Below, in pieces: positions 3,145 through 63,924 of a stretch of DNA of 64,000 nucleotides. Below the pieces are notes generated by a model. It was not told the DNA's origin and made no database searches. It saw only the letters and a program-made list of their open reading frames with translations. The translations under genes and the position numbers were made by a program. Each line of letters begins with the position of its first letter. The first letter of the stretch is position 1. This DNA is from a virus (lineage: Duplodnaviria; Caudoviricetes), in the IMG/VR virus record IMGVR_UViG_3300042090_001530, positions 96,001 to 160,000 of that record; one strand, written 5' to 3'.

Positions 3145-3844
3145 CGAGGCGACCACGGCCCGGCCTGCGCGCCGGGTGACGTTGGTGCAGACCGGCTACC
3201 TGACGGCGCGCACCGGCGGCTGGTACGACTTCCACGCCCGGGCGGACGGCGGCGAGACGTGGTCGGTCCCGGAGTTCGCGGTGGACGAGGCGTCGGTGTG
3301 CGACGCCCCGCCGGAGACGTTGACGGCGGACGACTGGTCGGAGATCTGCGGGACACTCGCCGCATGCTTGGGGAAGGAGCGGATGCGGGCGCTGGTCGCC
3401 AGGTTCGAGACGGCGGTCGAGGAGGAGCAGCGTCCCGTGGCCACTGAGGCGACGGCCACGGCGCCGCCGGACCGCGAGCGCGACAACGTGTTCGCGCATC
3501 TGCTCGGCGAGTTGGAGAACGCGAAAGCGCGGCTGAGCATTGCCCGCGACGTCCTGGTCAAGGACGGCTATTTCACGGCCGACGAGGTGGGCGACGACAT
3601 CGCGCCGCGCTTGGGCGAGTGGCTTTCGCACCATCGCGCCCGCACGGAGTCCGCCGAGGCTCTCGTCGCACGGGTGCGTGAGGTCGCCGGCTCGTGGGAC
3701 GCCTACCGGTATGTCGCGATGGAGCGCGGGCTCGATGCGGACCCGGCGCACGCGGTCCGCAAGGCGGCGTTCCGGGAGGCGCGTGACGCGCTGACCGTGG
3801 TGCTGGGCGGCGCGACGACCGGCGGCACGGCGGTCGAACGGTGA
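3137..3844 (+). CDS. hypothetical protein
   Basis: GAGGAGG RBS, ATGCCTGA overlap, high GC3. Confidence 0.65.
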   Translation: MPDEATTARPARRVTLVQTGYLTARTGGWYDFHARADGGETWSVPEFAVDEASVCDAPPETLTADDWSEICGTLAACLGKERMRALVARFETAVEEEQRPVATEATATAPPDRERDNVFAHLLGELENAKARLSIARDVLVKDGYFTADEVGDDIAPRLGEWLSHHRARTESAEALVARVREVAGSWDAYRYVAMERGLDADPAHAVRKAAFREARDALTVVLGGATTGGTAVER

Positions 3845-4227
3845 TGCCACGTGCCCTTCCGCTGTTCCTCGACACTGCGGCCGTGGGCCTGACCGTCGAG
3901 TATGCCGCCCGTTTCCATCGGCACGCCGCGGCCGTGAACCTCGCGCTGGCGTCGCTCGTGCTTGTCGTCTTCGTCGCCGCGATCCTCGCGCACTACGCCG
4001 AGCGGTGCGTACGCAACTTCGAGGCCTCGCACCCGGACGTGACCGGCGGGCTGCGCGCAGAGCCGCCGGAGCTTGACGGCGACGAACTCTGGTGCCGGAT
4101 CCTCGAGCGCTCCGCGACTGTCCCGGACATGCCGCGCGACGAGTTGATCCCGTGGCTCGTCGAGCACTCCGACACTCGGGTCGCCTTTCCCCACGACTTC
4201 GACCCAAGGACCCCGGCAGATGAATGA
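3841..4227 (+). CDS. hypothetical membrane protein
   Basis: coupled ORF with hydrophobic LASLVLVVFVAAILA segment. Confidence 0.55.
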   Translation: MMPRALPLFLDTAAVGLTVEYAARFHRHAAAVNLALASLVLVVFVAAILAHYAERCVRNFEASHPDVTGGLRAEPPELDGDELWCRILERSATVPDMPRDELIPWLVEHSDTRVAFPHDFDPRTPADE

Positions 4228-10042: not shown

Positions 10043-10726
10043 ATGCCCAATCCCGACTACACGATCTCCCCGTACGGCCGGGCTACGCGCCCGGCGCCCG
10101 CCGCCGCCTCGCAGAAGTGGCTGCTGACGGCCGTCGGCGAGTCGATGACCCACACGGGCCCGTTCCACGAGGCCGCGGAACTCGCCGAGCGCTCGTGGAT
10201 CGCCGCGAACGGCACCGATGAGGGCGCACTCGTGTGGTCCCGCGAACCGGACGGCTCGTGGTCGCTGCTGCACCAGCAGGATGACGGGGGCTTGATGCCC
10301 ACCCAGATCAAGGTGCGGGCCTTCGCCGCCAAGGACAGCGCTGCCCCTCCCGCTGACGCGCCGCTCGCGGTGATGCTCGACGAGGTGCACCGCATCGCGG
10401 TCGCGCGGCTCATGCCGGGCCAGATCCTTACCGTGACCGCGCCGCCGTGCACTGCCGACGTGACTGGCAAGCCCGGCTACGGGTGGACGCTGATCAGTTT
10501 TGACGATTTCGGCGTGCGTCCCCGGTTCACTCACGGACGCGAGTTCCTTGCCGCCACCCATGCCGGGACCGGTGACCTGTACCGGGCGATCGAAGACAGC
10601 ACGCTCGCGATCGAGGCCGGGGAGGCGCAGGTCGCCAGGGTCGTGTTCGAGCCGCGCGGCACGAAGCGCAAGCCGATCTGGCACGCGACCGGGCACGAGC
10701 TCATCAACCAGAACGTGGAGGCGTGA
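10043..10726 (+). CDS. hypothetical protein
   Basis: GGAGG RBS. Confidence 0.65.
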   Translation: MPNPDYTISPYGRATRPAPAAASQKWLLTAVGESMTHTGPFHEAAELAERSWIAANGTDEGALVWSREPDGSWSLLHQQDDGGLMPTQIKVRAFAAKDSAAPPADAPLAVMLDEVHRIAVARLMPGQILTVTAPPCTADVTGKPGYGWTLISFDDFGVRPRFTHGREFLAATHAGTGDLYRAIEDSTLAIEAGEAQVARVVFEPRGTKRKPIWHATGHELINQNVEA

Positions 10727-11091
10727 CCGTGGCTAAAGCCGACTACTCCATCTCCCCGCACGGCCGGGCGGTCTGCCCGGTGTGCGGCGGCGAGTACAGC
10801 CTGACGAAGAAGGGTGTGCTGCGGCATCACGACGATAAGCGGTCGCGTACGAACCTGCCGTTCCACCCGCGCTGCGCTGGAGCTGGCAAAGCGCCCGGGC
10901 ATGCGTCCGTGGCCCCCGCTTCGGCTCCAGTCGCTGCAGTTGCCGCGTCGCCGATCGAGGAGCGTCGCCGCCGTTTGACGGCGGACATCTCGGACGCGCG
11001 TACGGCCCTGAACCGTGCGCAGCAGCACTTCGACAAGCTCTGCGACGAACTCGGGGCGCTTGCCCGCGAAGAGCGCCAGGCCAAGCGATGA
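10723..11091 (+). CDS. hypothetical zinc-finger/coiled-coil protein
   Basis: CPVCGGEYSL...LRHH...C; N-terminus duplicated from preceding gene. Confidence 0.65.
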   Translation: MTVAKADYSISPHGRAVCPVCGGEYSLTKKGVLRHHDDKRSRTNLPFHPRCAGAGKAPGHASVAPASAPVAAVAASPIEERRRRLTADISDARTALNRAQQHFDKLCDELGALAREERQAKR

Positions 11092-19701: not shown

Positions 19702-21662
19702 TGGACCACCACCATGACATCCCCACCGTCCGCCTGCGCTCGAGCGGCCGGATCGCGCTCGCTTCGATCGCCATGACGTCCCTGCTCGGCTGGGCCCTGT
19801 ACCGCGTGTTCTCCGCCAACTCGGCGCTGCACGGCCGCGACAACAACGTCCTGCTCTGGTCGGCGTTGTTCCTCGCCGCCGGGCATCAGGTGCTGCTCGC
19901 CTGGCGCGACAAGCCGTTCACCGTCACCGACGCCCAGCAGGCCGAACTCGACAAGCTGCACCTGACGGTGAACGTCCCGCTGTACAACGAGTCCCCGGAG
20001 ATCGTCGACCGGGTCATGTACGCCCTGTTCCACCAGTCGCGGCTGCCGCAGCGCATCGACGTCGTCGACGACGGATCCCGCGCCGAGTACCGGGCCGCAT
20101 ACGAGGAGATCCGCGCGTACTGGGCGGACCGGTTCGCCGAGACCGGCGCCGTGTTCACGTGGACGCGGCAGGCCAACGCGGGCAAGCGGCATGCGCAGGC
20201 CGTCACGTTCCGGGACGCCCCGGACGGCATCGTCGTCACCCTCGACTCTGATACGGCGCTCGAGCGCGGCGCCCTGGTCGAGGTGCTCAAGCCGTTCGCC
20301 GACCCGCGGGTGTTCTCGGTCGCGGGTGTTGAGATCGCGTTCAACGCCCGGCGCAACCTGCTGACCCGGATAGGTGCGCTGCGGCAGATCACCTGGCAGC
20401 TCGTCCAATGCTCCGCACTGAACCGGCGCGGGCAGATGCTGGTCAACCGCGGCACCTTCGCCGCCTATCGCACCGTCGTCGTGCAGGAGCGGCTGGCCGC
20501 CTACCTGGGCGAGACGTTCGCGGGCAAGCCCGTGAAGTACTCGGACGACTCGCTGCTCACCCTCTACGCCCTCTCGTACGGGCGCGCCGTGCAGCAGCTC
20601 ACCGCATTCCAGCTGCCTGAATACCCCGAGTACGTCAGCCATGCCCTCCGTCAATGGGCGAGATGGATGCGCGGCTCGACCATCAGGTCCCTGTGGCGCG
20701 CCAAGTACCTGCCAGTCCGATCCTACGGCTGGTTCATGAACACCCTCTCGTGGTGGCAGTTCGTCACCGCGACCATGGCCTACCTGTACGTGTGGGCGTA
20801 CCTGCCCGCCGAGGGACGGTTCGGGCTCGCGTCGGTCGCGATCGCCGTGGCGTGCACGTACCTGATGCCGCTTCGGTCGCTGCTGATAGACCGTTCCGAC
20901 GAGACGAGCGTGCAGCAGTTGGACACGTTCCTGCTCGCCCCCCTGTCCTGGGCGTGGTCGCTGCTGGTCCTGCGCCCGCTGCGCCTGTACGGTGCGCTCA
21001 CGTGCGCGAACAACGGGTGGGGTACGCGCTCGGCCGTGGAGGTCGGGTTCGCGCGCGACCATGGAACCATGGCACTCGATCCGCTGGCTGAGACCGCCGT
21101 CATCGCTACCACCTCGGACACCCTCACCCTCCCGCCGGTCGGCCGTCCGGCCCGGCACAGACGCCGCCGGGGATGGTTGCATCCGGTGCACCTGACCGCG
21201 TTCGGCGCGGTGACCGCCGCGGCGGCATGCGGCGCGGTGGTGGTGCTCGCCGGGACCTCGCCGAGCCCCGACCGGTTCGCGCCGGGCCCGCGCGCCGTAG
21301 TGTCGGCCAGGGCGGCGGCCACGATCACCATCCCCGCGATCACTGCGCCCGCTGCCGCGCCTACGCCAGGCGTAGGGGGGCAGGTGCCCGCGGCTGCGGT
21401 AAGCGTCCTTGGGCCGCCTTCCTCGACTCCGGCAGCCATCCCGCCGCCGACCGTGCCGGGGCCCGGCACGGTCGCAGCCTCAAGCGGCACGACCGCCGCC
21501 GTGCCGCCGGCTCCGATGCCAACGAAGACTCCAACGGCCTCGCCGTCCGCATCCGTGACGCCGACCGCGAGCGCGGCCCCAAGCGTCTCCTCAAGTCCGT
21601 CGGCGTCCGCGAGCATCTCGCCGAGCGCCACGATCACTACGCCGACCGGGAGCCCGGAATGA
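19701..21662 (+). CDS. processive GT2 synthase (hyaluronan/chitin synthase/NodC-like) with Pro/Ser/Thr-rich C-tail
   Basis: VPLYNE, VVDDGS, NAGKRHAQ, TLDSDT, YSDDSLLT, LRQWARW (QxxRW); N- and C-terminal TM helices. Confidence 0.9.
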   Translation: MDHHHDIPTVRLRSSGRIALASIAMTSLLGWALYRVFSANSALHGRDNNVLLWSALFLAAGHQVLLAWRDKPFTVTDAQQAELDKLHLTVNVPLYNESPEIVDRVMYALFHQSRLPQRIDVVDDGSRAEYRAAYEEIRAYWADRFAETGAVFTWTRQANAGKRHAQAVTFRDAPDGIVVTLDSDTALERGALVEVLKPFADPRVFSVAGVEIAFNARRNLLTRIGALRQITWQLVQCSALNRRGQMLVNRGTFAAYRTVVVQERLAAYLGETFAGKPVKYSDDSLLTLYALSYGRAVQQLTAFQLPEYPEYVSHALRQWARWMRGSTIRSLWRAKYLPVRSYGWFMNTLSWWQFVTATMAYLYVWAYLPAEGRFGLASVAIAVACTYLMPLRSLLIDRSDETSVQQLDTFLLAPLSWAWSLLVLRPLRLYGALTCANNGWGTRSAVEVGFARDHGTMALDPLAETAVIATTSDTLTLPPVGRPARHRRRRGWLHPVHLTAFGAVTAAAACGAVVVLAGTSPSPDRFAPGPRAVVSARAAATITIPAITAPAAAPTPGVGGQVPAAAVSVLGPPSSTPAAIPPPTVPGPGTVAASSGTTAAVPPAPMPTKTPTASPSASVTPTASAAPSVSSSPSASASISPSATITTPTGSPE

Positions 21663-22705
21663 GCAGGCGCATCTGGATCCTCGCGGCGGCCGTCGTGCTC
21701 GCGTGCGCAGCCGGGGGAGCGGGCCTGGCTGCCGACGGGCACGGGCCTGCGGCCCGCACGGTGGCCGCGGCGGGCGCGGCACGCACCAGTGCGGCCTCGA
21801 ACCCGGCGAGACCCTCAGCGTCCGCCGCGGCGCCCGCAGTGCCCGTGAACGCCGCGCCGTACACCGACCCGGCGGGCAAGTACCTGGGTGTCGCGCTCCC
21901 GGCCGGCACTGCGGGTCTCGCCGGGTTCGCCGCCTCGACCGGTGTCCACCCGGACTTGTGGGAGACGTATGCCGGCTGGGGCGAGGCGTTCCCGACGTCG
22001 GATGCCACCTCGGCGTGGTCGCAGGGCGCGATGACCCTTGTGGCGTGGCAGACGGACTCCACGAGCCTCACGTCGATCGCGGACGGCGGTAGCGACGCCT
22101 ACCTTGAGCGGTTCGCCGCCGCGGTCCACGTTTTCGCGCACCCGGTGATGATCGGCATCGACCACGAGATGAACGGCGACTGGTACCCGTGGGGCACGCA
22201 AGCCGTCACCCCGGCCCGGTTCGTCGCGGCCTGGCGGCACATCCACGACATCTTCGTGGCCGCCGGGGACGACAACGTCCTGTGGGTGTGGGCGCCCAAC
22301 GTCGTCAACCCTGTGCCCAACGTCGCCCTTCAGCCGTACTACCCGGGCAACGCGTACGTGGACATCGTCGGGATCACGGGCTACTACACGGGCGAGATCG
22401 GCGAGGACTCGTATGCGGGATTGTTCGGCCGCACCGAAACAATCGTCGAACAATTCTCTGACCGGCCGTTTCTCGCATCCGAGACAGGCGTCGAGCAAGG
22501 TGCAGACAAGGCCGCGTGGGTCAGCAACCTGATCGACGGAGTGAAGGCGGACCCGCAGATGCTCGGGTTCGTGTACTTCGACTTCGGCGCCGCCCAGGGC
22601 AAACGCGCGGACTGGACGCTGCAAGACGACCCGGCCGCGCTCACCGCCTACCGGACCGACGCGGCCACGATCACTGAAGCCGCCATCTCGAACGGAGCGC
22701 GCTGA
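21659..22705 (+). CDS. secreted/anchored GH26 glycoside hydrolase
   Basis: signal-like N-terminus; HEMNGDWYPW (acid/base), WVWAPN, YPGNAYVDIVG, LASETG (nucleophile). Confidence 0.88.
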   Translation: MSRRIWILAAAVVLACAAGGAGLAADGHGPAARTVAAAGAARTSAASNPARPSASAAAPAVPVNAAPYTDPAGKYLGVALPAGTAGLAGFAASTGVHPDLWETYAGWGEAFPTSDATSAWSQGAMTLVAWQTDSTSLTSIADGGSDAYLERFAAAVHVFAHPVMIGIDHEMNGDWYPWGTQAVTPARFVAAWRHIHDIFVAAGDDNVLWVWAPNVVNPVPNVALQPYYPGNAYVDIVGITGYYTGEIGEDSYAGLFGRTETIVEQFSDRPFLASETGVEQGADKAAWVSNLIDGVKADPQMLGFVYFDFGAAQGKRADWTLQDDPAALTAYRTDAATITEAAISNGAR

Positions 22706-24513
22706 TGGTGCAGACCACGCCCGCATTCATGATCGACGGCCCGAGTACGGTCGACCGCGACGACGCGATCCGCCTCGAGGAGAACCCGGACGGCACCCGC
22801 ACGCTCATCGTGTACGTCGCCGACCTGACGGCCGCGCTCGACACTGATCCGGGCCTACTAGGCGTGGCGCTCGACCGCGGCGCGTCGCAGTACCGGCGAC
22901 AGGTGGCGGTGGAGACGATGCTGCCGGACGACGTCCAGGCAGCGTGCACTCTCGCCGAGGACACTGCCCGGCCGGTCCTGGAGATACGGCTGCCACTCGA
23001 CCCCGCGGGCGTCGTAGGCGACGCGGTATTGGGGCGCAGCGTGCTGTCTGGCGCAGTTGCCTTGTCGCACGAGCAGGCCGCGTTCGCGGTCGCGGACCGG
23101 CGCCATCCGCACCACAAGCCGCTGACGGCGCTGCGAGAGGTCGCCGAGGCGCTCTTTCGTGCCCGCTACGGCGCGTCTTCGGCGTTCTACGACTTCACGC
23201 GAGGCGTCTTCGTGGACGAGGACGGCGCGCTAGTGAAGGTGAAGGCCGCGCACGTCGTCGGGCACCTGATCGTCCAAGAGGCGATGATCGCGGCGAACCG
23301 GGCGGTCGCAGAGTGGGCGATCCGCGAGGACGTCCCGATCATGTTCCGTAACCACGCGGCCGCAGTCTCGGCCCCGCCTGCTGCCGTGCACCTCGAAGAC
23401 TTGTCGGCCGCGCTGCGCAGCGACGACCCCGCAGAACTGGCGACGTGGTTGGCGCGGGCCGAACTCACCGGACGCCGGGCCCGGTACGACGCGTACCCGC
23501 GTGAGCATCACGGGCTCGGCATCCCCGCCTACTGCCACAGTACGAGCCCGCTGCGCCGGGCCGCGGACCTGATCACGCAGCGTTCGATCGTCGCCCGCTT
23601 GGACGGGCGGGCGGCGCCGTTCACGGTGGAGGATGTCGCCGGGTTCTCCGAGCGGCTCACGGTCGTGATCGCGGAGGCGAAGTCGGCGAGCAGCACGGCC
23701 AGTCGGGAACGCGCGCACGAGCAGGCGCGGCAGATCCTGGACCAGGGCGCCGACTATTCGAGGATGAGCGCGGCCCGGTTCTTCGCGCTCGTCAAGCGCG
23801 CGACGAAGGAAGGCATCGCGTCGCCCGGGTTCCTGACCGAGGTCACCCGCCGCGCCGACACTGACATGTTCGAACTGCGCGACCTCTACCACCTGATCCT
23901 GCTGCCGACCGGCACCGAGTGGCTGGCAGCGAAGTCGGCGTGCCTCGCTCAGGTGTCGCGGCATCCGGAGCACGCGGTGAGCCTCGTGGCGATGTGGGCT
24001 CAGACCAGAGGCGTCGAACAGCCCGCGTACTCGCATTCGGCGGCCGGCCCGTCGCATCGACCGGCGTTCACCGCGAGCGGTGCCGTGGCCGGCCGTGACG
24101 GGGTGCAGGTCTCGGGTGCGGCCCGGACCGCGGCCTCGAAGGGGTCCGCGCAAGCCCAAGCAGCGCTCAGTCTGCTCGCCGCACTCGCTGGCGTCCCTGA
24201 CTGCTCGACGGATGCAGCCATCCCGATCGAACCGGCATCCGAGCCGAAGCAGCCGACGCTCACGGGCGATCCGCTCCGGGCGTTGAATCACGCGCGCAAT
24301 ACCGGGCTGCTCTCGCGTGTGGAGTGGGTGGTCCAGCAAGGTGCAGCGGCGGACGGCCAGCCGCTGTTCGACGCACACCTCACCGCGCAGCGCCGCCCAG
24401 GCGCGGCGGTCGAGGGCCGGGGCCGCGCGGCAACGAAGAAGGCGGCGAAGGCTGCCGCTGCGGCCGACCTCGTGGACCGCCTGAAGACGACCGCCTCGAA
24501 TGGAGCGAACTGA
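22705..24513 (+). CDS. RNB-domain (RNase II/R) ribonuclease fused to two dsRNA-binding domains
   Basis: IDGPSTVDRDDA, QEAMIAAN, HSTSPLRRAAD; dsRBD-like GPSHRPAF...SKGSAQAQAA and ...GRAATKKAAKAAAA. Confidence 0.85.
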   Translation: MVQTTPAFMIDGPSTVDRDDAIRLEENPDGTRTLIVYVADLTAALDTDPGLLGVALDRGASQYRRQVAVETMLPDDVQAACTLAEDTARPVLEIRLPLDPAGVVGDAVLGRSVLSGAVALSHEQAAFAVADRRHPHHKPLTALREVAEALFRARYGASSAFYDFTRGVFVDEDGALVKVKAAHVVGHLIVQEAMIAANRAVAEWAIREDVPIMFRNHAAAVSAPPAAVHLEDLSAALRSDDPAELATWLARAELTGRRARYDAYPREHHGLGIPAYCHSTSPLRRAADLITQRSIVARLDGRAAPFTVEDVAGFSERLTVVIAEAKSASSTASRERAHEQARQILDQGADYSRMSAARFFALVKRATKEGIASPGFLTEVTRRADTDMFELRDLYHLILLPTGTEWLAAKSACLAQVSRHPEHAVSLVAMWAQTRGVEQPAYSHSAAGPSHRPAFTASGAVAGRDGVQVSGAARTAASKGSAQAQAALSLLAALAGVPDCSTDAAIPIEPASEPKQPTLTGDPLRALNHARNTGLLSRVEWVVQQGAAADGQPLFDAHLTAQRRPGAAVEGRGRAATKKAAKAAAAADLVDRLKTTASNGAN

Positions 24514-25016
24514 TGCCCGAGACCACGATCACTACCGCCGTGGAGGCCGTGTCCGAGCGGCTTCGCACGGAGATCACCGCCGCATTGACTGCTGTCCTCG
24601 CGCAGTGGGACGAGCGGGAGGTGGACGCGACGAAACGCGCCGGATTCCTGCTCGGCGACTTCACCGAAGCAATGCTCGACGTGTTCGAGTCCAAGACGGC
24701 CGAGCAGTACGGCGTGGACATCGCCGGGCAGACCAGGCTGCGGGAACTCGCGTACCGCGACGGCACGCTCCATATGGAGCTCGACGCGGCCCACGAGATC
24801 ATGATCGCGCTTGTCGCAGCAGCGCGCACGATTCTCGGCGACGCTCAGAACTACGTGGAGATGGAGTTGAAGTCCGCGGAGTCGCTGGACCGGTTCGTAC
24901 TGACGATTCAGCGGGCCGGGAAGTTGACGCCGCATGAGGCGCGGTTGAAGGCGGAGGCCGAGCGTGACGCGCTGCGGGCTGAACTCGATGCGCTGAAGGC
25001 GGCGAGCAATGCTTGA
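24513..25016 (+). CDS. hypothetical phage protein
   Basis: TGATG overlap; C-terminal coiled coil. Confidence 0.6.
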   Translation: MPETTITTAVEAVSERLRTEITAALTAVLAQWDEREVDATKRAGFLLGDFTEAMLDVFESKTAEQYGVDIAGQTRLRELAYRDGTLHMELDAAHEIMIALVAAARTILGDAQNYVEMELKSAESLDRFVLTIQRAGKLTPHEARLKAEAERDALRAELDALKAASNA

Positions 25017-52135: not shown

Positions 52136-52192
52136 TTACGTCCTACCATCACACGTCTTACGGCTACCATCGGACGCAGTCTCAGAAAGGGG
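52136..52192 (+). promoter_or_regulatory. tandem repeat with two -10-like hexamers, plus RBS
   Basis: TTACG-tc-CTACCATC and TTACG-g-CTACCATC; TACCAT at 52144 and 52165; AGAAAGGGG before GTG. Confidence 0.55.
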
Positions 52193-52198
52193 TCACCA

Positions 52199-52933
52199 GT
52201 GGCCAAGCTGTGCCAGATCGTCGCCGTCGAGAAGTCGGTGAAGTCCAAGTCGTTCGCGGACCTCACCGAAGCGCATCACGCGTTGCAGAAGCCCGCGCTG
52301 CTCGCCGGGATCTCCCGCACCTACCAGCCCAAGGACGAGGAAGGCGACACGTTCCCGCCCGAGTCCACGAAGGTCCAGGTGCGCGCCGAGGACGTGATCG
52401 AACGCACCGCGGCGAACCTCACCCGGCTGTTCGACGTGACCGCAACGAAGGAGTGGGCGAACTGCACGGCCCGGGCGGACGTGAAGCTCCCGGACGGCAC
52501 GGTGCTCGTGCACCAGGCGCCGGTCACGTACCTGCTGTTCCTGGAGAAGCAACTGGTCGACCTGGCGACGTTCGTGAAGAAGCTGCCGGTGCTCGACGCG
52601 GCCGAGTCGTGGGAGCACGACCCTGCGTCCAACGCGTGGCGCACCCCCGCGGTGCAGACGAACCGGTCGAAGAAGGTCTACCGCAACCACATCAAGGCCG
52701 AAGCCACCGATAAGCACCCGGCTCAGGTCGAGACGTACACCGAAGACGTGACCGCCGGGCACTGGACGACCACGAAGTTCTCCGGCGCCCTGCCGGCGAC
52801 GCGGGTTAAGGAGCTCGCCGAGCGGGTGGAGACGCTGCACCACGCCGTGAAGTTCGCGCGCGAGGAGGCCAACGGGGCCGAGGTGACGGATCGTCTGGTC
52901 GGCGAGGCCGTGTTCGGTTACCTGTTCGCGTGA
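52199..52933 (+). CDS. conserved actinobacterial/phage protein of unknown function (DUF7873-like)
   Basis: KLCQIVAVEKSVKSK..ISRTYQPKDEEG..VTYLLFLEKQL..KHPAQVE..KFSGAL..VKFAREEAN; family recalled from memory, not searched. Confidence 0.75.
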   Translation: MAKLCQIVAVEKSVKSKSFADLTEAHHALQKPALLAGISRTYQPKDEEGDTFPPESTKVQVRAEDVIERTAANLTRLFDVTATKEWANCTARADVKLPDGTVLVHQAPVTYLLFLEKQLVDLATFVKKLPVLDAAESWEHDPASNAWRTPAVQTNRSKKVYRNHIKAEATDKHPAQVETYTEDVTAGHWTTTKFSGALPATRVKELAERVETLHHAVKFAREEANGAEVTDRLVGEAVFGYLFA

Positions 52934-52956
52934 TGGTCTAGGATCTGCTGCGAGCG

Positions 52957-53070
52957 CAGGTTGAGGCTAAGGCTGAAACTGACGGATCGCTCGACGAGGT
53001 TGCAGGTTCGAGTCCTGCTCTGCGCACTCCGGGCGCAGATGGCCCAATTGGTAGAGGCGCGTCGGGTTCC
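52957..53070 (+). ncRNA. circularly permuted tRNA-like module 1 (YrlA-like)
   Basis: CTCGACG-AGGTT-GCAGG TTCGAGT CCTGC-TCTGCGC ACTCCGG GCGCAGA-TG-GCC CAATTGGTAGA GGC-G-CGTCGGG (core 52990-53066). Confidence 0.8.
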
Positions 53071-53073
53071 ACC

Positions 53074-53230
53074 CAGGTTGAGGCTCTCGCTCCAGGCTCG
53101 CGTATCGCAGTCGATCGCCCGATCGAATGGATTGCCGCTGAGACCGCCAGGTTGTTGGTTCGATCCCAACGCGAGGCTCTTCGTGCCTCGCTAGCTCAAT
53201 CGGCAGAGCAGGCGCTTCAAGGTGACGGTG
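53074..53230 (+). ncRNA. circularly permuted tRNA-like module 2 (YrlA-like)
   Basis: CGCC-AGGTT-GTTGG TTCGATC CCAAC-GCGAGGC TCTTCGT GCCTCGC-TA-GCTC AATCGGCA GAGC-A-GGCG (core 53145-53214). Confidence 0.85.
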
Positions 53231-53343
53231 TTCCTTAAACGTCGCGGGTGTGACAAATGGCTGTCAACTGACTCGATATCAGTGATTGGGACCCTCGGGA
53301 TGGATATGGCCCGGGGGTTCCGCCATGTCCGGGCAACCGTCGC

Positions 53344-53389: not shown

Positions 53390-53683
53390 ATGTGCCGTTA
53401 CGCGATGAGCGACTATCGGACGCACTTCGTGTGCACGTTGTGCCGCCGCTCGTTCAAGCACGAGCCCGGTAGTGAGCAGCGCTGCCCTGGCTGCCGCGGG
53501 CCGATGGTGGATGCGGGCCGGGACCTTGAGGTGCCGCGGCGTGGTGACGTGGCCGGGTGGCGTGCGCTGGCCGCAGTGCTCGACGCGGGGCTGACGTTCC
53601 ATTCGTGCGGCTGCAACGGGCCCGGCTACCGGCCGAGAACGCCGGCCGCAGCCCGGCAGGTGGCATTCGCCAGCCGTAGATAG
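53390..53683 (+). CDS. small zinc-ribbon protein
   Basis: HFVCTLCRRSFK..CPGC..MVDAGRDLEVPRR..W..HSCGCNGPGYRP. Confidence 0.7.
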   Translation: MCRYAMSDYRTHFVCTLCRRSFKHEPGSEQRCPGCRGPMVDAGRDLEVPRRGDVAGWRALAAVLDAGLTFHSCGCNGPGYRPRTPAAARQVAFASRR

Positions 53684-53684
53684 C

Positions 53685-53716
53685 GCGACCGCCCCGGTTT
53701 CGGCCGGGGCGGTCGC
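53685..53716. terminator. intrinsic terminator, probably bidirectional
   Basis: GCGACCGCCCCGG-TTTCGG-CCGGGGCGGTCGC then TTCTCT. Confidence 0.85.
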
Positions 53717-54279: not shown

Positions 54280-55425
54280 TCAGGCCTTGACGATCGCCCC
54301 CCAGTGCCCGCGGCTGAGCCGGATCGTGCCGTCGAGCCCGACGGTCGCGTTCGCACCGTACAGCGGCAGGCGCCCTTCGATCAGCCACCTCTTCTTGAGC
54401 CCGTCGAGGCTGCGCCACAGGTCGATCGGGCCACTCACGTGGACCGTAGGGAGTTGCCCGATGGAGCCTTCGGCGCGGGCCCATGAACCTTCCCGATCCC
54501 AGATCAGGCTGATCGCGTAGGTGCCGCGTCGCACCCACCGCGTTTGGATGCCCTGATGCTGGACGGCGAGGTTGGAGTACAACTCCCACGCGTCGTCGAG
54601 GTCGGTCAGCGGGAACACGCCCGCGCGCGCCGACTGGTCGCCGCTGGACTCGAGCATCAGGTCGAGTCGCCGCTTCGAGACTTCCGGCGGATAGGTGTCG
54701 GAGTGGCGTGCGGGCATGAACCCGGCCCAGTCGCGTTCGATACGCCCGAGCAGCGTCCCGTCGGGTTGTCGGTTGGCGGTGAGGATCGCCGTCGTGCCGT
54801 CGAGCACCGTGACGATCCGGCCGCCGGGCCGTAGGGCTTCGATCCACGCGGGCGGGATCGGGCTGACGGCGACGGTCGCGACGATCCGGTCGTACGTGCC
54901 GGGCACGATCCGGGTCGCGTCGCACACCTCGAGGGTGGGCGTCAGGCCGTTTGCCTCGAGGCGTTCACGCGCGGCCTTCACCAGGTACGGGTCTACGTCG
55001 ACCGAGGTGACATGCCTGTCGCCGAGGCGCGTGCACAGCAGGGCGGTGCCGTATCCGGAGCCGGTGCCGACGTCGAGGACGTCCATGCCGTCGACGAGTT
55101 GGCCGTGCCGGTACATCTGGATCAGCAGTCCGGGATGCGTGCTCGACGACGTGGGCCTACCGTCGTCCAGGGTCGTGCCGGGGGCCGCCGCGTCCGCGTG
55201 CATCGTGCCGACGCGGGTGACGAGCGAGACGTCCCGGTATGCGGCATCGACCCATCGGTCTGGGTTCTGCTTGCCGCCGTGGTTGACCCATCCGTCGCCG
55301 CGACGCGCCCACCAGGAGGGCACGTATTCGTGCCGGGGGACCGATGCTAGGGGTTGGCGCCAGCGGGAGACGCCGGGCGTGACGGCGGCGGCCATGTCGG
55401 CGGCGCGCGTTTTCCAGTCGGGCAC
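54280..55425 (-). CDS. protein-L-isoaspartate O-methyltransferase-like (PIMT/PCMT) SAM methyltransferase
   Basis: VPRHEYVP, TSSSTHP, VLDVGTGSGYGTALL, VTSVDVD, YDRIVAT, LRPGGRIV. Confidence 0.88.
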   Translation of the reverse strand: MPDWKTRAADMAAAVTPGVSRWRQPLASVPRHEYVPSWWARRGDGWVNHGGKQNPDRWVDAAYRDVSLVTRVGTMHADAAAPGTTLDDGRPTSSSTHPGLLIQMYRHGQLVDGMDVLDVGTGSGYGTALLCTRLGDRHVTSVDVDPYLVKAARERLEANGLTPTLEVCDATRIVPGTYDRIVATVAVSPIPPAWIEALRPGGRIVTVLDGTTAILTANRQPDGTLLGRIERDWAGFMPARHSDTYPPEVSKRRLDLMLESSGDQSARAGVFPLTDLDDAWELYSNLAVQHQGIQTRWVRRGTYAISLIWDREGSWARAEGSIGQLPTVHVSGPIDLWRSLDGLKKRWLIEGRLPLYGANATVGLDGTIRLSRGHWGAIVKA

Positions 55426-55428
55426 GGG

Positions 55429-56334
55429 TCAGTCCTTGGTTCTCTGTGTGAGCCGGATGGTCGGGAACGGCGGCGTGTAGTCGTAGGCCGGGGCGCATGC
55501 GGGGGTGCGGGCCGGGTCGCAGTCGTTCGAGTCGTCCGGTGTGCATGGGTCGCTGCTGCGGCGCGGGATGCTGCGCATGTGCCGGTTCCAGGTCGGGCCG
55601 GCGAGGATCCCGGCGAGTGTCGCACCGTCGAGGAGGTTGCCTGCACGCAGGCCGCGGCCGAGCACGCACGGGGCGACGGTGCCGTCCGGTAGGATCGCGA
55701 GCCGTCCGTCACCGCAGCGCCCGCACAGTTCGGTGACAGGCGCGTCAATGTCCGGGTTCGGGCTGGCCCGGCCGACACCGCGCGCCCGGTCTATCTTCAC
55801 CAGATCTTCGGGGACGCCGAGCCCGATCAACTCCGCTTTGGCTTCGTCGGCGCGTTGGCCCGGAAGCACTCGGACGATGCCGACCTGCAGCGGGATGCCC
55901 AGGTTTAGGGCCGTGACGATGTTCGCGCGCGTCCGGGCGTGGCTGCCGGGCTTCGTCGTGACCGCATCATGCTCGGCCGCGACGTCGGAGTAGTACGACG
56001 TGCCGAGGGTCACGCGCGGATTGGAGAACGCGTCCCAATGCTGCGCGGTGACGCTGTAGAGGTTCGAGTAGACCTGCACTTTGAGGCCTTCGAAGCCGAG
56101 GACGTAGTCGAGCAGTTCGAGCCAGTGCGGTGACGCGGTCGGCTCGCCGCCGATGAGTTGGATGGTTTCGGCGCCGCAGTCGCGGGCTTGGCGCACTGCA
56201 GCCTTCCAGTCTTCGAGGGTCATCGCGCCGTGGTGTGCGCCCGGATGCGAGCGCGTCAGACAGTGGGTGCACTTGAGTTGGCAGGCATGGGTGAGTTCGA
56301 GTTCGACGAGGCGCGGGACTGCGTCGGCGCCCAT
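55429..56334 (-). CDS. radical SAM protein with SPASM/twitch-like domain and Cys/Asp/Pro-rich C-terminal tail
   Basis: CQLKCTHC, LIGGEPT, YSN, CGRC..G..APC; tail PCTPDDSNDCDPARTPACAPAYD. Confidence 0.9.
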   Translation of the reverse strand: MGADAVPRLVELELTHACQLKCTHCLTRSHPGAHHGAMTLEDWKAAVRQARDCGAETIQLIGGEPTASPHWLELLDYVLGFEGLKVQVYSNLYSVTAQHWDAFSNPRVTLGTSYYSDVAAEHDAVTTKPGSHARTRANIVTALNLGIPLQVGIVRVLPGQRADEAKAELIGLGVPEDLVKIDRARGVGRASPNPDIDAPVTELCGRCGDGRLAILPDGTVAPCVLGRGLRAGNLLDGATLAGILAGPTWNRHMRSIPRRSSDPCTPDDSNDCDPARTPACAPAYDYTPPFPTIRLTQRTKD

Positions 56335-62306: not shown

Positions 62307-62759
62307 TCATCCCGCAAGGACTGGATCCCAGCCGGGTACGACGGTCAGCGGGATGCCTTCGCGCACCCACAGGGCGCAGGGCTCGGGCCGGTCGTCGTAC
62401 GCGTGCACGGGCCTGTATCGGAGCCGGATCTTCGCAAGGATCTCAGCCTTGATGACCTCGTCGGGCCGGCAGTCGTTATTCGGCCGCATGTACATGGCGT
62501 CGCTCGGAACCGAGTGCAATGCCAAGGTCCACGCGCTCACGTGCCGGTAGCGGATCTGCCGGGCGGTCGTGATCAGGATGGCGCGGCCGAGCTTGGCGTG
62601 CTCGCGCAACTCGTCCACGACCCACTGGTTGACGGGGCAGTTGACGCTGGCCATGTGGAAGGCGTGGAAACGGCCGGGACCGTTGATCAGATGCCGGATG
62701 CCGCGAACGTCGACGATCGTGCCATCAAGATCCGCGATGACGGCCTCGGGCAGGATCAC
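62307..62759 (-). CDS. HAD-family phosphatase, T4 Pnk 3'-phosphatase-like
   Basis: ADLDGT, TTAR, LYM-like AMYMR..D.RPDEVIK, YDDRP. Confidence 0.85.
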   Translation of the reverse strand: MILPEAVIADLDGTIVDVRGIRHLINGPGRFHAFHMASVNCPVNQWVVDELREHAKLGRAILITTARQIRYRHVSAWTLALHSVPSDAMYMRPNNDCRPDEVIKAEILAKIRLRYRPVHAYDDRPEPCALWVREGIPLTVVPGWDPVLAG

Positions 62760-63505
62760 GGCACCTCCTTCGGCGTGACGCGGTAGTACTCGGCGCGCAC
62801 CCGGTTGAGCCAGGACTGCACGATCGCGGTGCGCGGCTCGTCAGGGAGCACGGTCTTGGCGGCGTTGAACCGATCTTCGGCGGCGGCCATGAACGGCACG
62901 GCGGCCTGCGGGTTGGCGGCGACAGCCTCGCCGAAGTCGAGGTACTTCTGCGGGTTCTCGAGCCGGATGCGCAGGTTGCCGGTGGTGTACAGCTCGAATC
63001 CTTGATCAACCAGGCGCATCAAGTGCCTGGCGTGCTTGGAGGCTCGCCGTGCCGGGATGTCTGAGTCGAACGACCCGTCACCGCGCGTCAGCAGCTTCTT
63101 GAACTGCTGCGTCGCATAGCCGAGGTACGCGTCCCTCGTCCGCTTGGCGCAGTGGAACGCACTCCGGAGCCCGATCAGTTCCGCACCGAGCGGCGCCCTG
63201 ACCTCATACTCAGTCAACCAGAGCACCTCTGTCGACGTTGGATTACCGGCCAGTAGTAGCCGTACGGCTTTCGAGGCCTCGTGCAGCGTCGAGTCGGGTT
63301 TCGTCGTCACGATCGAGTCGCGCGGCGGGTCGAGCCTGAACAGCCGCACCGTGTCGTACGCGAAGATCCCGAGACGGTCCACGTCCGAGTCCGGGCCGGC
63401 AAGCCCGTAAGCCGTCGATCCGACCACGCCCTCAAGGAGAATGTGCATGCCGCCAGTCTCTGATGTCGGCGCGGCCGGGGCGACCTGATTCGCAACGGCC
63501 GTCAC
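62756..63505 (-). CDS. Pol-beta superfamily nucleotidyltransferase (RlaP/YcgL-like)
   Basis: GSTAYGLAGPDSDVDRLG, HEASKAVRLLLAGNPTSTEVL, SKHARHLMRL. Confidence 0.87.
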   Translation of the reverse strand: MTAVANQVAPAAPTSETGGMHILLEGVVGSTAYGLAGPDSDVDRLGIFAYDTVRLFRLDPPRDSIVTTKPDSTLHEASKAVRLLLAGNPTSTEVLWLTEYEVRAPLGAELIGLRSAFHCAKRTRDAYLGYATQQFKKLLTRGDGSFDSDIPARRASKHARHLMRLVDQGFELYTTGNLRIRLENPQKYLDFGEAVAANPQAAVPFMAAAEDRFNAAKTVLPDEPRTAIVQSWLNRVRAEYYRVTPKEVP

Positions 63506-63924
63506 GGCGCTTCCTCGTCCGGTACTGGGACCGCCTTGTACGTGTCCACGAGTTCGCGGCCGTGCCGGTTGCACACCAGAGTTTCGGCGCCGACGCCCCC
63601 GAACGTGCCGTCGGGCGTCACGGCTGCGACGATGACGGTCGTCTCGGCGGGGTCTACGCACTGGGCGAGCTTGCCGCTGGCCGGGTTCTGGGCGTGGAAG
63701 CCGCACTGCGGCGCAGCCTCATCGGTCTCGGGCGTCCGCGTTTCTTCGTCGACCACTTCGTCTCCTTCGACGGGTAGGCGCCGCGAGGACTCGGCGAGCG
63801 CCTTGAAGAAGACGGCCACGGCTGCGGGTGCGTCGCTCATGCTGATCCCGCTGTCGGCCCAGAGTTTGAGGCCGTCGGTCGTAATGTCGCTGGCCCGGAT
63901 GCCGCCGAGGTTGATGCCATCCAC
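63502..63924 (-). CDS. hypothetical protein
   Basis: AAGGAG RBS, GTGA overlap. Confidence 0.6.
   Translation of the reverse strand: MDGINLGGIRASDITTDGLKLWADSGISMSDAPAAVAVFFKALAESSRRLPVEGDEVVDEETRTPETDEAAPQCGFHAQNPASGKLAQCVDPAETTVIVAAVTPDGTFGGVGAETLVCNRHGRELVDTYKAVPVPDEEAP

Follow-up and report, generated by a model that had tools for sequence, protein, structure and literature searches.

A conserved RNA with two permuted tRNA-like domains accompanies DUF7873 genes in phages and Streptomycetaceae

Why should a phage carry two circularly permuted tRNA-like sequences directly behind a gene of the DUF7873 family, with no gene for the Y RNA-binding protein Ro60 (TROVE) in the vicinity? The locus lies in a stretch of 64,000 nucleotides (the window) that comprises bases 96001-160000 of a 202,490-bp IMG/VR virus record with a G+C content of 68.6% and an estimated completeness of 98% (CheckV). 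A unit on the + strand consists of a DUF7873 open reading frame (ORF) at 52199-52933, an ORF-poor stretch to about 53330, and a Zn-ribbon-like ORF at 53390-53683. A previous interpretation made without database searches (the sequence-only reading) had proposed that the two RNA modules have the topology of YrlA-type Y RNAs and that the DUF7873-like protein is their partner. Here we describe a conserved RNA of about 380 nt that is genetically locked to DUF7873, and favor, with moderate confidence, a role for the two as a ribonucleoprotein in tRNA/RNA quality control.

One RNA with two tRNA-like heads

The two permuted tRNA-like modules are the heads of a single RNA of about 380 nt (52940-53321, + strand, as are all of its parts; ends approximate), which ends at a conserved hairpin. 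Conserved blocks and helices are present throughout this span in the homologous loci, which were aligned from the stretches downstream of DUF7873 in phages, IMG/VR contigs, and actinobacterial chromosomes. Module A (module 1; 52991-53065) is a permuted tRNA-Leu-like domain and module B (module 2; 53144-53215) a permuted tRNA-like domain of the YrlA type. They score 82.5 and 74.2 bits, respectively, with covariance models built here from modules A (R1) and B (R2), whose seed alignments include the window's two sequences. The order of elements and the paired stem at the base of each module are as the sequence-only reading had described them. In module A, a stem (TCGACG 52991-96/CGTCGG 53060-65) encloses AGGTT (52997-53001), a T arm (53002-18, loop TTCGAGT), a 7-bp acceptor (53019-25/53033-39) closed by the loop ACTCCGG, U8-G9, and a D arm (53042-58) with GG in its loop. 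Module B repeats this arrangement, with a stem of CCGCC (53144-48)/GGCG (53211-14), AGGTT (53149-53), a T arm (53154-70, loop TTCGATC), an acceptor (53171-77/53185-91, loop TCTTCGT) with U at position -1, U8-A9, and a D arm (53194-209).

Base pairing in these domains is maintained by compensatory changes, which occur in 19 of 21 pairs of module A and 20 of 22 pairs of module B. RNAalifold recovered the T, acceptor, and D stems of both modules, together with two long-range helices around module B, and compensatory changes are present in 40 of the 50 predicted pairs. In alignments of the modules only, the three stems were 100% paired (93% for the D stem of module B), and covariation scores were 0.66 and 0.72 for the two modules versus 0.19 and 0.24 for shuffled alignments and at most 0.24 when the partner was slid; the sequences in these alignments were chosen by a scanner that requires pairing, so the weight rests on the variation and on the independent RNAalifold and Infernal results.

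The heads are embedded in a fixed order of conserved blocks. GAGCRC is followed by three to five hexamers of the form A-R-R-Y-U-N (consensus from 32 loci), module A, two more hexamers, and UCGCUC, and then by a helix with AUCGA in its internal loop, module B, CUUAAACG, the 3' strand of the helix, and a hairpin with a GGAUAU loop. In the window, the 5' strand of the unit A closing stem (52952-52981) contains GAGCGC and the hexamers AGGTTG, AGGCTA, AGGCTG, and AAACTG, and the 3' strand (53075-53092) contains AGGTTG, AGGCTC, and the conserved UCGCUC (family block ..AGRYUC AGRUUMUCGCUC..). The sequence-only reading had seen CAGGTTGAGGCT before each module and had taken the repeats of the unit to be promoter-like. 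Exactly two copies of CAGGTTGAGGCT are indeed present, at 52957 and 53074 (0.01 expected by chance), but both flank module A, where they are hexamers of its closing stem, and no sigma-70-like promoter was found between the DUF7873 gene and the RNA in the window. A coding function of the hexamers, as K/R-L repeats reached by read-through, was considered and rejected: they fall in frame 0, +1, and +2 in 14, 12, and 6 loci, respectively, neither a start nor a stop is conserved, and in UCGCUC it is the nucleotides, not the codons, that are maintained.

Cognate flanks form more stable duplexes than non-cognate ones, with means of -23.4 versus -16.7 kcal/mol for unit A and -23.0 versus -15.4 kcal/mol for unit B, and the window's own unit A duplex reaches -37.4 kcal/mol. 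Flanks upstream of module A showed no cognate pairing preference with those downstream of module B. Because the flanks pair best with their own partners, each head appears to have its own closing stem, like a Y RNA. For unit A the support is this test of cognate duplexes, as column-wise covariation of its poorly aligning flanks gave no consensus fold. The closing stem of unit B has a 5' side (53116-53137) made of the outer helix CGCCCG (53116-21), AUCGAA in the internal loop (53122-27), and the inner helix GGATTGCCG (53129-37), and a 3' side (53226-53250) with CGGTGTTCC (53226-34), the conserved CCUUAAACG (53233-41), and the outer helix CGGGTG (53245-50). These helices (RNAalifold columns 199-204/340-345 and 212-220/321-329) have compensatory changes in 14 of 15 pairs, and an independent column scan agrees. 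UUAAACG is nearly invariant in the S3 alignment, which contains actinobacterial, cyanobacterial, and proteobacterial phage loci. The likely 3' end of the RNA is a hairpin at 53288-53321, found in relatives with the same conserved GGAUAU loop; the RNA therefore extends to about 53321, beyond position 53230, where the sequence-only reading had let the unit end.

To which class of RNA does this molecule belong? At the gathering threshold, Rfam yielded no match in the window. Permissive searches with the YrlA model (RF02553) gave 28 bits for module B (full model, E 5e-4) and 25 bits for module A (E 4e-3), compared with a gathering cut-off of 69 bits, and similar sub-threshold matches lie downstream of DUF7873 in six of 11 GenBank phage loci scanned. 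The cut-off is strict, since RNAs adjacent to Ro60 in two other genomes (Streptacidiphilus rugosus and phage RHph_TM2_3B) reach just 36-38 bits. The architecture of YrlA, a T arm, a loop-closed acceptor, and a D arm on a closing stem, is present, in agreement with the sequence-only reading. The motif GNCGAAN0-1G near the 5' end of YrlA has been proposed as the Ro60 contact (PMC4201824). As had been noted before, it has no exact counterpart here: GNCGAANG does not occur in 52934-53330, and the nearest sequence by eye is GATCGAATG, at a site where the family consensus is RAUCGAC.

Neither a tRNA nor a tmRNA (transfer-messenger RNA) was detected in the window by ARAGORN. The Rfam tRNA model (RF00005) reached 24.3 bits (cut-off 29), and only by an alternative fold that uses the upstream GCGCAGG; an anticodon loop is absent. 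A tmRNA was likewise not found by Rfam or ARAGORN, G3:U70 is missing from both acceptors (GCGCAGA and GCCTCGC), and the frame of the hexamers is inconsistent. The absence of an anticodon loop and of G3-U70 reported in the sequence-only reading is thus confirmed.

Comparison with described systems places the RNA near YrlA, with distinct features of its own. As in YrlA, the partner of bacterial and mycobacteriophage Ro60/Rsr, a long closing stem is capped by a permuted domain with T arm, loop-closed acceptor, U8-N9, and D arm, and there is often more than one copy on the same strand beside the protein gene (PMC4201824). Unlike YrlA, the two units are part of one RNA of about 380 nt with hexamers, UCGCUC, AUCGA/CUUAAACG, and the GGAUAU hairpin, the D arm of module A is of the tRNA-Leu type, Rfam scores are 25-38 bits, GNCGAAN0-1G is missing, and the neighboring gene is DUF7873, not TROVE. 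Two-piece tmRNA shares the order T arm, acceptor 3' strand, (N)CCA, loop, acceptor 5' strand, and D-like region, the Rfam beta_tmRNA model matches the modules in part, and a dedicated small candidate partner protein is encoded, as with SmpB. However, no pseudoknots were identified, there is no fixed start/stop frame for a tag, and DUF7873 does not have the SmpB fold. In the permuted tRNA genes of Cyanidioschyzon merolae, other algae, and archaea, the 3' half also precedes the 5' half, with a short linker between the acceptor ends; in those genes the linker is cut later and circularization at a bulge-helix-bulge creates a full anticodon loop, whereas the 'anticodon stem' here runs into a long helix with no such loop. 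The large structured RNAs GOLLD and ROOL are also often located in tRNA clusters of phages and prophages, but they differ in architecture, have no Rfam match here, and lack the strict link to one protein gene.

The identity of module A can be narrowed further. Its U8-N26 segment matches tRNA-Leu best in 36 of 37 loci (mean score 15.5 versus at most 9.9 for other tRNA types), and by this sequence measure module A mimics the tRNA-Leu elbow. Some copies contain GCGG-AATTGGTAG-ACGC, which we take to match the D arm of Escherichia coli tRNA-Leu. Module B has no single tRNA identity and resembles the YrlA consensus.

Decay of tandem tRNA genes, or chance resemblance, could in principle produce such modules, and R1 and R2 indeed give junctions of tandem tRNA genes 50-62 bits. 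This explanation is effectively refuted by acceptor stems that are loop-closed (mostly by 6-40 nt) and covary within each module, by the lack of an ARAGORN tRNA at the locus, and by conservation across phyla with flanking motifs and expression. The only R1 matches in the whole 202-kb genome are the two modules, and the listed R1 matches of at least 64 bits adjoin DUF7873. Nearly all genomes also contain weaker R1 matches (50-62 bits); the five that were checked turned out to be tandem tRNA-Asn or tRNA-Arg genes. Such tandem genes, with spacers of 4-36 nt (loci L178-L182, Streptomycetaceae), are a systematic false positive for searches of the YrlA type. They are also a plausible evolutionary source of the permuted modules.

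Linkage to DUF7873 and independence of Ro60

The ORF at 52199-52933 (+ strand; 244 aa, GTG start, TGA stop at 52931-33) encodes a full-length member of DUF7873 (PF25283; E 2e-108; 362 bits versus a Pfam cut-off of 27; 242 of 244 profile positions), as the sequence-only reading had suspected. The RNA is strictly co-inherited with this gene across phages and Streptomycetaceae. In 85 viral and phage sources, about 79 of 84 testable loci have a module within 1 kb downstream of DUF7873 on the same strand, and about 60 have two. Distant relatives (27% to 38% protein identity) that carry the RNA include Klebsiella jumbo phages, Ralstonia phage phiRSL1, Rhizobium phages, and Pseudanabaena phage Pam2. 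The Rhizobium and Vibrio phage versions have a single B-type head and CAAACU-type hexamers; the Vibrio phage locus (L013) reaches only 17.5-23.7 bits, though it passes the regular-expression scan, and the RNA of another locus (L064) is divergent and recognizable by eye. In the Microcoleus phage My-WqHQDG (L010:3950-4159), a HEARO RNA (129 bits) with an adjacent 1.3-kb ORF (a HEARO/IscB element) is inserted at the expected RNA site, and a T-arm-like remnant is all that remains of the DUF7873-associated RNA.

DUF7873 has thousands of relatives, and confirmed candidate loci in the species-genome collection number at least 593. Among the Streptomycetaceae loci, at least 57 of 80 contain module A at E<1e-12. 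Of 121 sampled Streptomycetaceae genomes, 76 (63% of species) have the gene, never in more than one copy. In 62 of these 76, module A is found 80-100 nt past the gene, and behind each of the remaining 13 intact genes module B is found at a distance of 170-320 nt, which brings the linkage to 75 of 75 intact genes; the 76th match is a DUF7873 gene fragment without the RNA. The downstream RNAs on which the sequence-only reading had staked its proposal are thus present at about nine of ten homologous genes of phages and viruses and at all 75 intact genes of the sampled Streptomycetaceae. In Streptomyces toyocaensis (L162:3826-3935), module A has a short hairpin in place of its head, with the hexamer stem, UCGCUC, and module B retained; this is one possible route to the state of 13 of 75 sampled Streptomycetaceae, in which module B is the sole module detected next to the gene. 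The same gene neighborhood surrounds the pair in three of four Streptomyces loci examined. A clustering of neighboring genes in Streptomyces loci was dominated by spurious high-GC ORFs.

This distribution bears on a defensive function of the RNAs, which the sequence-only reading had put forward. Phage-encoded tRNA decoys could soak up tRNA-targeting defense nucleases or toxins that modify acceptor ends. Module A is a faithful copy of the tRNA-Leu elbow, processing could expose acceptor ends, and the pair occurs within tRNA arrays of phages and close to genes for RNA repair. However, RNAs without an anticodon loop would not decoy anticodon nucleases, and the gene is a single-copy chromosomal one in 63% of the sampled Streptomycetaceae species, with a shared neighborhood in three of the four Streptomyces loci examined. 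Some Streptomyces have lost the head of module A and kept the hexamer stem, and a decoy has no need of a strictly co-inherited protein. A decoy role is therefore poorly supported, and we regard it as unlikely.

The linkage of gene and RNA is independent of Ro60. The absence of TROVE, noted in the sequence-only reading for the window, extends to the whole 202-kb phage genome and to four of five other complete phage genomes with the pair (Racecar, GodonK, KpLz-2_45, and phiRSL1); in the fifth, RHph_TM2_3B, TROVE is located 6 kb downstream of the pair. TROVE is likewise missing from two of the five complete Streptomyces genomes that contain the pair and is 74-146 kb distant in the remaining three. 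YrlA typically lies within about 4 kb of the Ro60/TROVE gene on the same strand (PMC4201824), a distance found here only in Streptacidiphilus rugosus and, roughly, in RHph_TM2_3B. In S. rugosus (L177:3036-7284), TROVE is 1.7 kb upstream of DUF7873 with its own YrlA-like RNA directly before it, and two more YrlA-like modules and a fragment of an RLIG1-like RNA ligase are found upstream of the DUF7873 unit. Because TROVE, where present, has YrlA-like RNAs of its own, the DUF7873 pair and the Ro60 system appear to be separate, and their occasional neighborhood fits a shared field of action. The checks that the sequence-only reading had proposed (Rfam YrlA and tRNA models, covariation, and TROVE co-occurrence) have thereby yielded YrlA matches below the cut-off, covarying stems, and independence of Ro60.

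The molecules might still be ordinary YrlA RNAs, loaded in trans onto a Ro60/Rsr of the host, with DUF7873 a mere neighbor. Their topology is YrlA-like, YrlA is the best family match in Rfam, and a low score in itself does not exclude membership, as the Ro60-adjacent RNAs show. TROVE is also close to DUF7873 in S. rugosus and RHph_TM2_3B and is found somewhere in three of the five complete Streptomyces genomes. It is absent, however, from the other two and from five of six complete phage genomes with the pair, and TROVE genes, where they occur, have separate YrlA-like RNAs immediately before them. In addition, the conserved motif of this family is AUCGAC in place of GNCGAAN0-1G, and all 75 intact Streptomycetaceae genes are linked to the RNA. 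We consider membership in the Ro60 system doubtful. No publication was found on a YrlA-like RNA that lacks Ro60 and has another partner, or on a DUF7873-RNA pair.

Expression and processing of the RNA

The RNA is transcribed in related Streptomyces, and a fragment of its stem accumulates; for this phage itself, no RNA run was among those listed. Related sequence was identified in RNA-seq runs of three organisms (four runs from four studies) and compared with the S. toyocaensis locus (L162:3001-4300); the data are assembled contigs, which carry no strand or exact ends, from relatives that lack the head of module A. Single contigs with 90% to 95% identity to this locus span from the gene to position 4130, the conserved 3' hairpin about 400 nt downstream. 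In run X10, depth is 1,629 for the gene contig, 1,918 for the unit B piece (3905-4100), and 36 beyond the 3' hairpin, a drop of about 50-fold. Three short pieces at 3841-3930 reach depths of 20,000-25,000, about 15-fold over the gene, and two of the short pieces run into the Illumina adapter at 3925 and 3934. The abundant span is the unit A hexamer stem, which in this locus is capped by the short hairpin, not by a tRNA-like head.

Contigs that join gene and RNA at similar depth would also be expected of a cis-acting element in the 3' untranslated region of the DUF7873 mRNA, with an effect on stability, termination, or processing and no function in trans. The position of the RNA directly downstream on the same strand fits this explanation, as does the lack of a recognizable promoter between gene and RNA in the window. 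However, many relatives have a hairpin between gene and RNA (terminator-like, with a U-run, in at least one case, L009), in one locus (L068) the RNA precedes the gene, and the stem fragment exceeds the mRNA about 15-fold. Two elaborate tRNA-like domains with conserved tertiary-contact nucleotides also go beyond the needs of a stability element, and we give a purely cis-acting role little credence.

The acceptor loops of relatives usually begin with N73-C74 and often contain a full CCA (ACCA.., TCCA.., GCCA..). Conservation of C74 is 90% or more, module A mostly has A73, and at least 90% of module B sequences carry a U immediately 5' of G1. The sequence-only reading had reported that there is no CCA, which is correct for the copies in the window (loops ACTCCGG and TCTTCGT) but not for the many relatives with N73-CCA. 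An encoded N73-CCA and U(-1) are features of RNase P substrates. Because relatives often encode both, processing of the acceptor loops by an RNase P-type route is suggested. There is precedent in Mycobacterium smegmatis, where YrlA undergoes RNase P cleavage in its acceptor loop and CCA addition (Chen et al. 2014, PMC4201824).

Might the processed RNA be charged with an amino acid? In the boldest form of this idea, which we regard as improbable, module A would be opened by RNase P to give an anticodon-less, ribosome-independent mimic of tRNA-Leu that is aminoacylated and then used by DUF7873 as an amino-acid donor or in a rescue resembling trans-translation. E. coli leucyl-tRNA synthetase (LeuRS) is not known to require the anticodon or the long variable arm. 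A closely related explanation, in which the modules mature to split tRNA-like molecules, module A is charged, probably with leucine, and DUF7873 uses it as a donor or in the manner of tmRNA/SmpB, is likewise quite improbable in our view. The frequently encoded N73-CCA, the conserved C74, the A73 of module A, and the nearly invariant U(-1) of module B would suit a charged RNA, as would the tRNA-Leu-type D arm in 36 of 37 loci, the CCA addition known for YrlA, and the gene order and partial beta_tmRNA matches shared with two-piece tmRNA. On the other hand, ARAGORN found no tmRNA, G3:U70 is absent, the 'K/R-L' reading of the hexamers is tied to no fixed frame, start, or stop, conservation of UCGCUC is at the nucleotide level, and the copies in the window have no CCA. 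If an aminoacylated mimic did exist, its function would lie outside any known role of Y RNAs or tmRNA.

The DUF7873 protein and a possible role of the pair

An AlphaFold2 model of DUF7873 based on 120 family members has a mean predicted local distance difference test score (pLDDT) of 95.5 and a predicted template modeling score (pTM) of 0.84. The predicted fold consists of four long helices, a small sheet, and a 40-residue beta-hairpin, at whose tip the model places the most conserved motif of the family, TDKHPAQ. No named structural relative was identified in the PDB (by sequence profile or Foldseek), and clusters of the AFDB returned unnamed family members only. The best match to the VIA-align wide set (Z 7.7) is helical-bundle noise, and nothing informative was obtained from ESM Atlas features (all <0.9), PHROGs, PADLOC, or NCBIfam. 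The fold is thus new as far as this confidently predicted model goes. No paper that mentions DUF7873 was found in the literature. Conserved Arg, Lys, Trp, Tyr, and His positions of the family could make a binding face, and RNA binding by DUF7873 is plausible, yet the composition of the protein gives no pointer to it.

The best candidate for a protein partner of the RNA is DUF7873, because the RNA is independent of Ro60, follows the DUF7873 gene, and is covered by transcripts, and the gene-RNA pair probably marks an undescribed RNA-protein system. Several observations weigh against this view. The family is slightly acidic (median isoelectric point 6.2, net charge -2), and no recognized RNA-binding domain was found in DUF7873 by Pfam, PDB-profile, or structure searches. 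Two loci (L034 and L035) have no RNA beside DUF7873 according to R1 and R2, the RNA pair of L068 lies upstream of the gene, and the expression data come from relatives without the module A head, with neither strand nor exact ends.

We propose that DUF7873 may bind the conserved stem motifs, by analogy with the binding of the Y RNA stem by Ro60. The tRNA-like heads would then offer tRNA-shaped surfaces to RNase P, the CCA-adding enzyme, modification enzymes, or factors of repair or decay, and their acceptor loops would probably be opened by RNase P and 3' trimming. The putative particle would act in tRNA/RNA quality control or repair, and phages may carry the pair, often in tRNA arrays, to keep the tRNA pool working during infection. 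Because the gene is a single-copy chromosomal one with a shared neighborhood, the role may be one in cellular RNA metabolism that has been borrowed by phages, not a phage-specific counter-defense.

The surroundings of the pair differ among phages. It sits within tRNA arrays in Racecar, GodonK, NiceHouse, and RHph_TM2_3B, and the phage studied here has a single tRNA gene in 202 kb (tRNA-Thr, genome position 10711-10783; ARAGORN). In the tRNA array upstream of DUF7873 in Gordonia phage GodonK (L006:384-912), Rfam identifies a tmRNA (90 bits) where the record annotates just a 62-nt 'tRNA-His'. An RNA end-healing pair is encoded 9 kb from the RNA in the window (62307-63706, - strand), consisting of a stand-alone PNKP-type phosphatase (PF25109, E 6e-17) and an RlaP nucleotidyltransferase (PF10127, E 1e-17). 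Searches of the complete phage genome for RtcB and Rnl2 ligases gave no match, and a Catenulispora prophage with DUF7873 contains Rnl1 and PNKP. The Zn-ribbon ORF downstream of the RNA (53390-53683, + strand) encodes a Cys-rich protein of 97 aa with a weak HypA-like match and is followed by a strong GC-rich terminator hairpin of 14 bp (53685-53716). It was considered as a third component of the unit and rejected, with no homologue in any other DUF7873 locus. Farther downstream, a radical SAM/SPASM enzyme (55429-56334, - strand) adjoins a PCMT-like methyltransferase (54280-55425, - strand) in an arrangement that resembles a peptide-modification cassette.

Y RNAs are defined by Ro60. The locus described here has a Y-RNA-like tRNA mimic with a different protein, one of new predicted structure, in place of Ro60. 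About two thirds of the Streptomycetaceae species sampled have the pair, as do phages of Actinobacteria, Proteobacteria, and Cyanobacteria. Should the two assemble into a particle, it would be a ribonucleoprotein of RNA metabolism with a wide distribution, found in the main antibiotic producers and their phages, and it would offer a second, independent example for studying the purpose of tRNA mimicry in Y RNAs.

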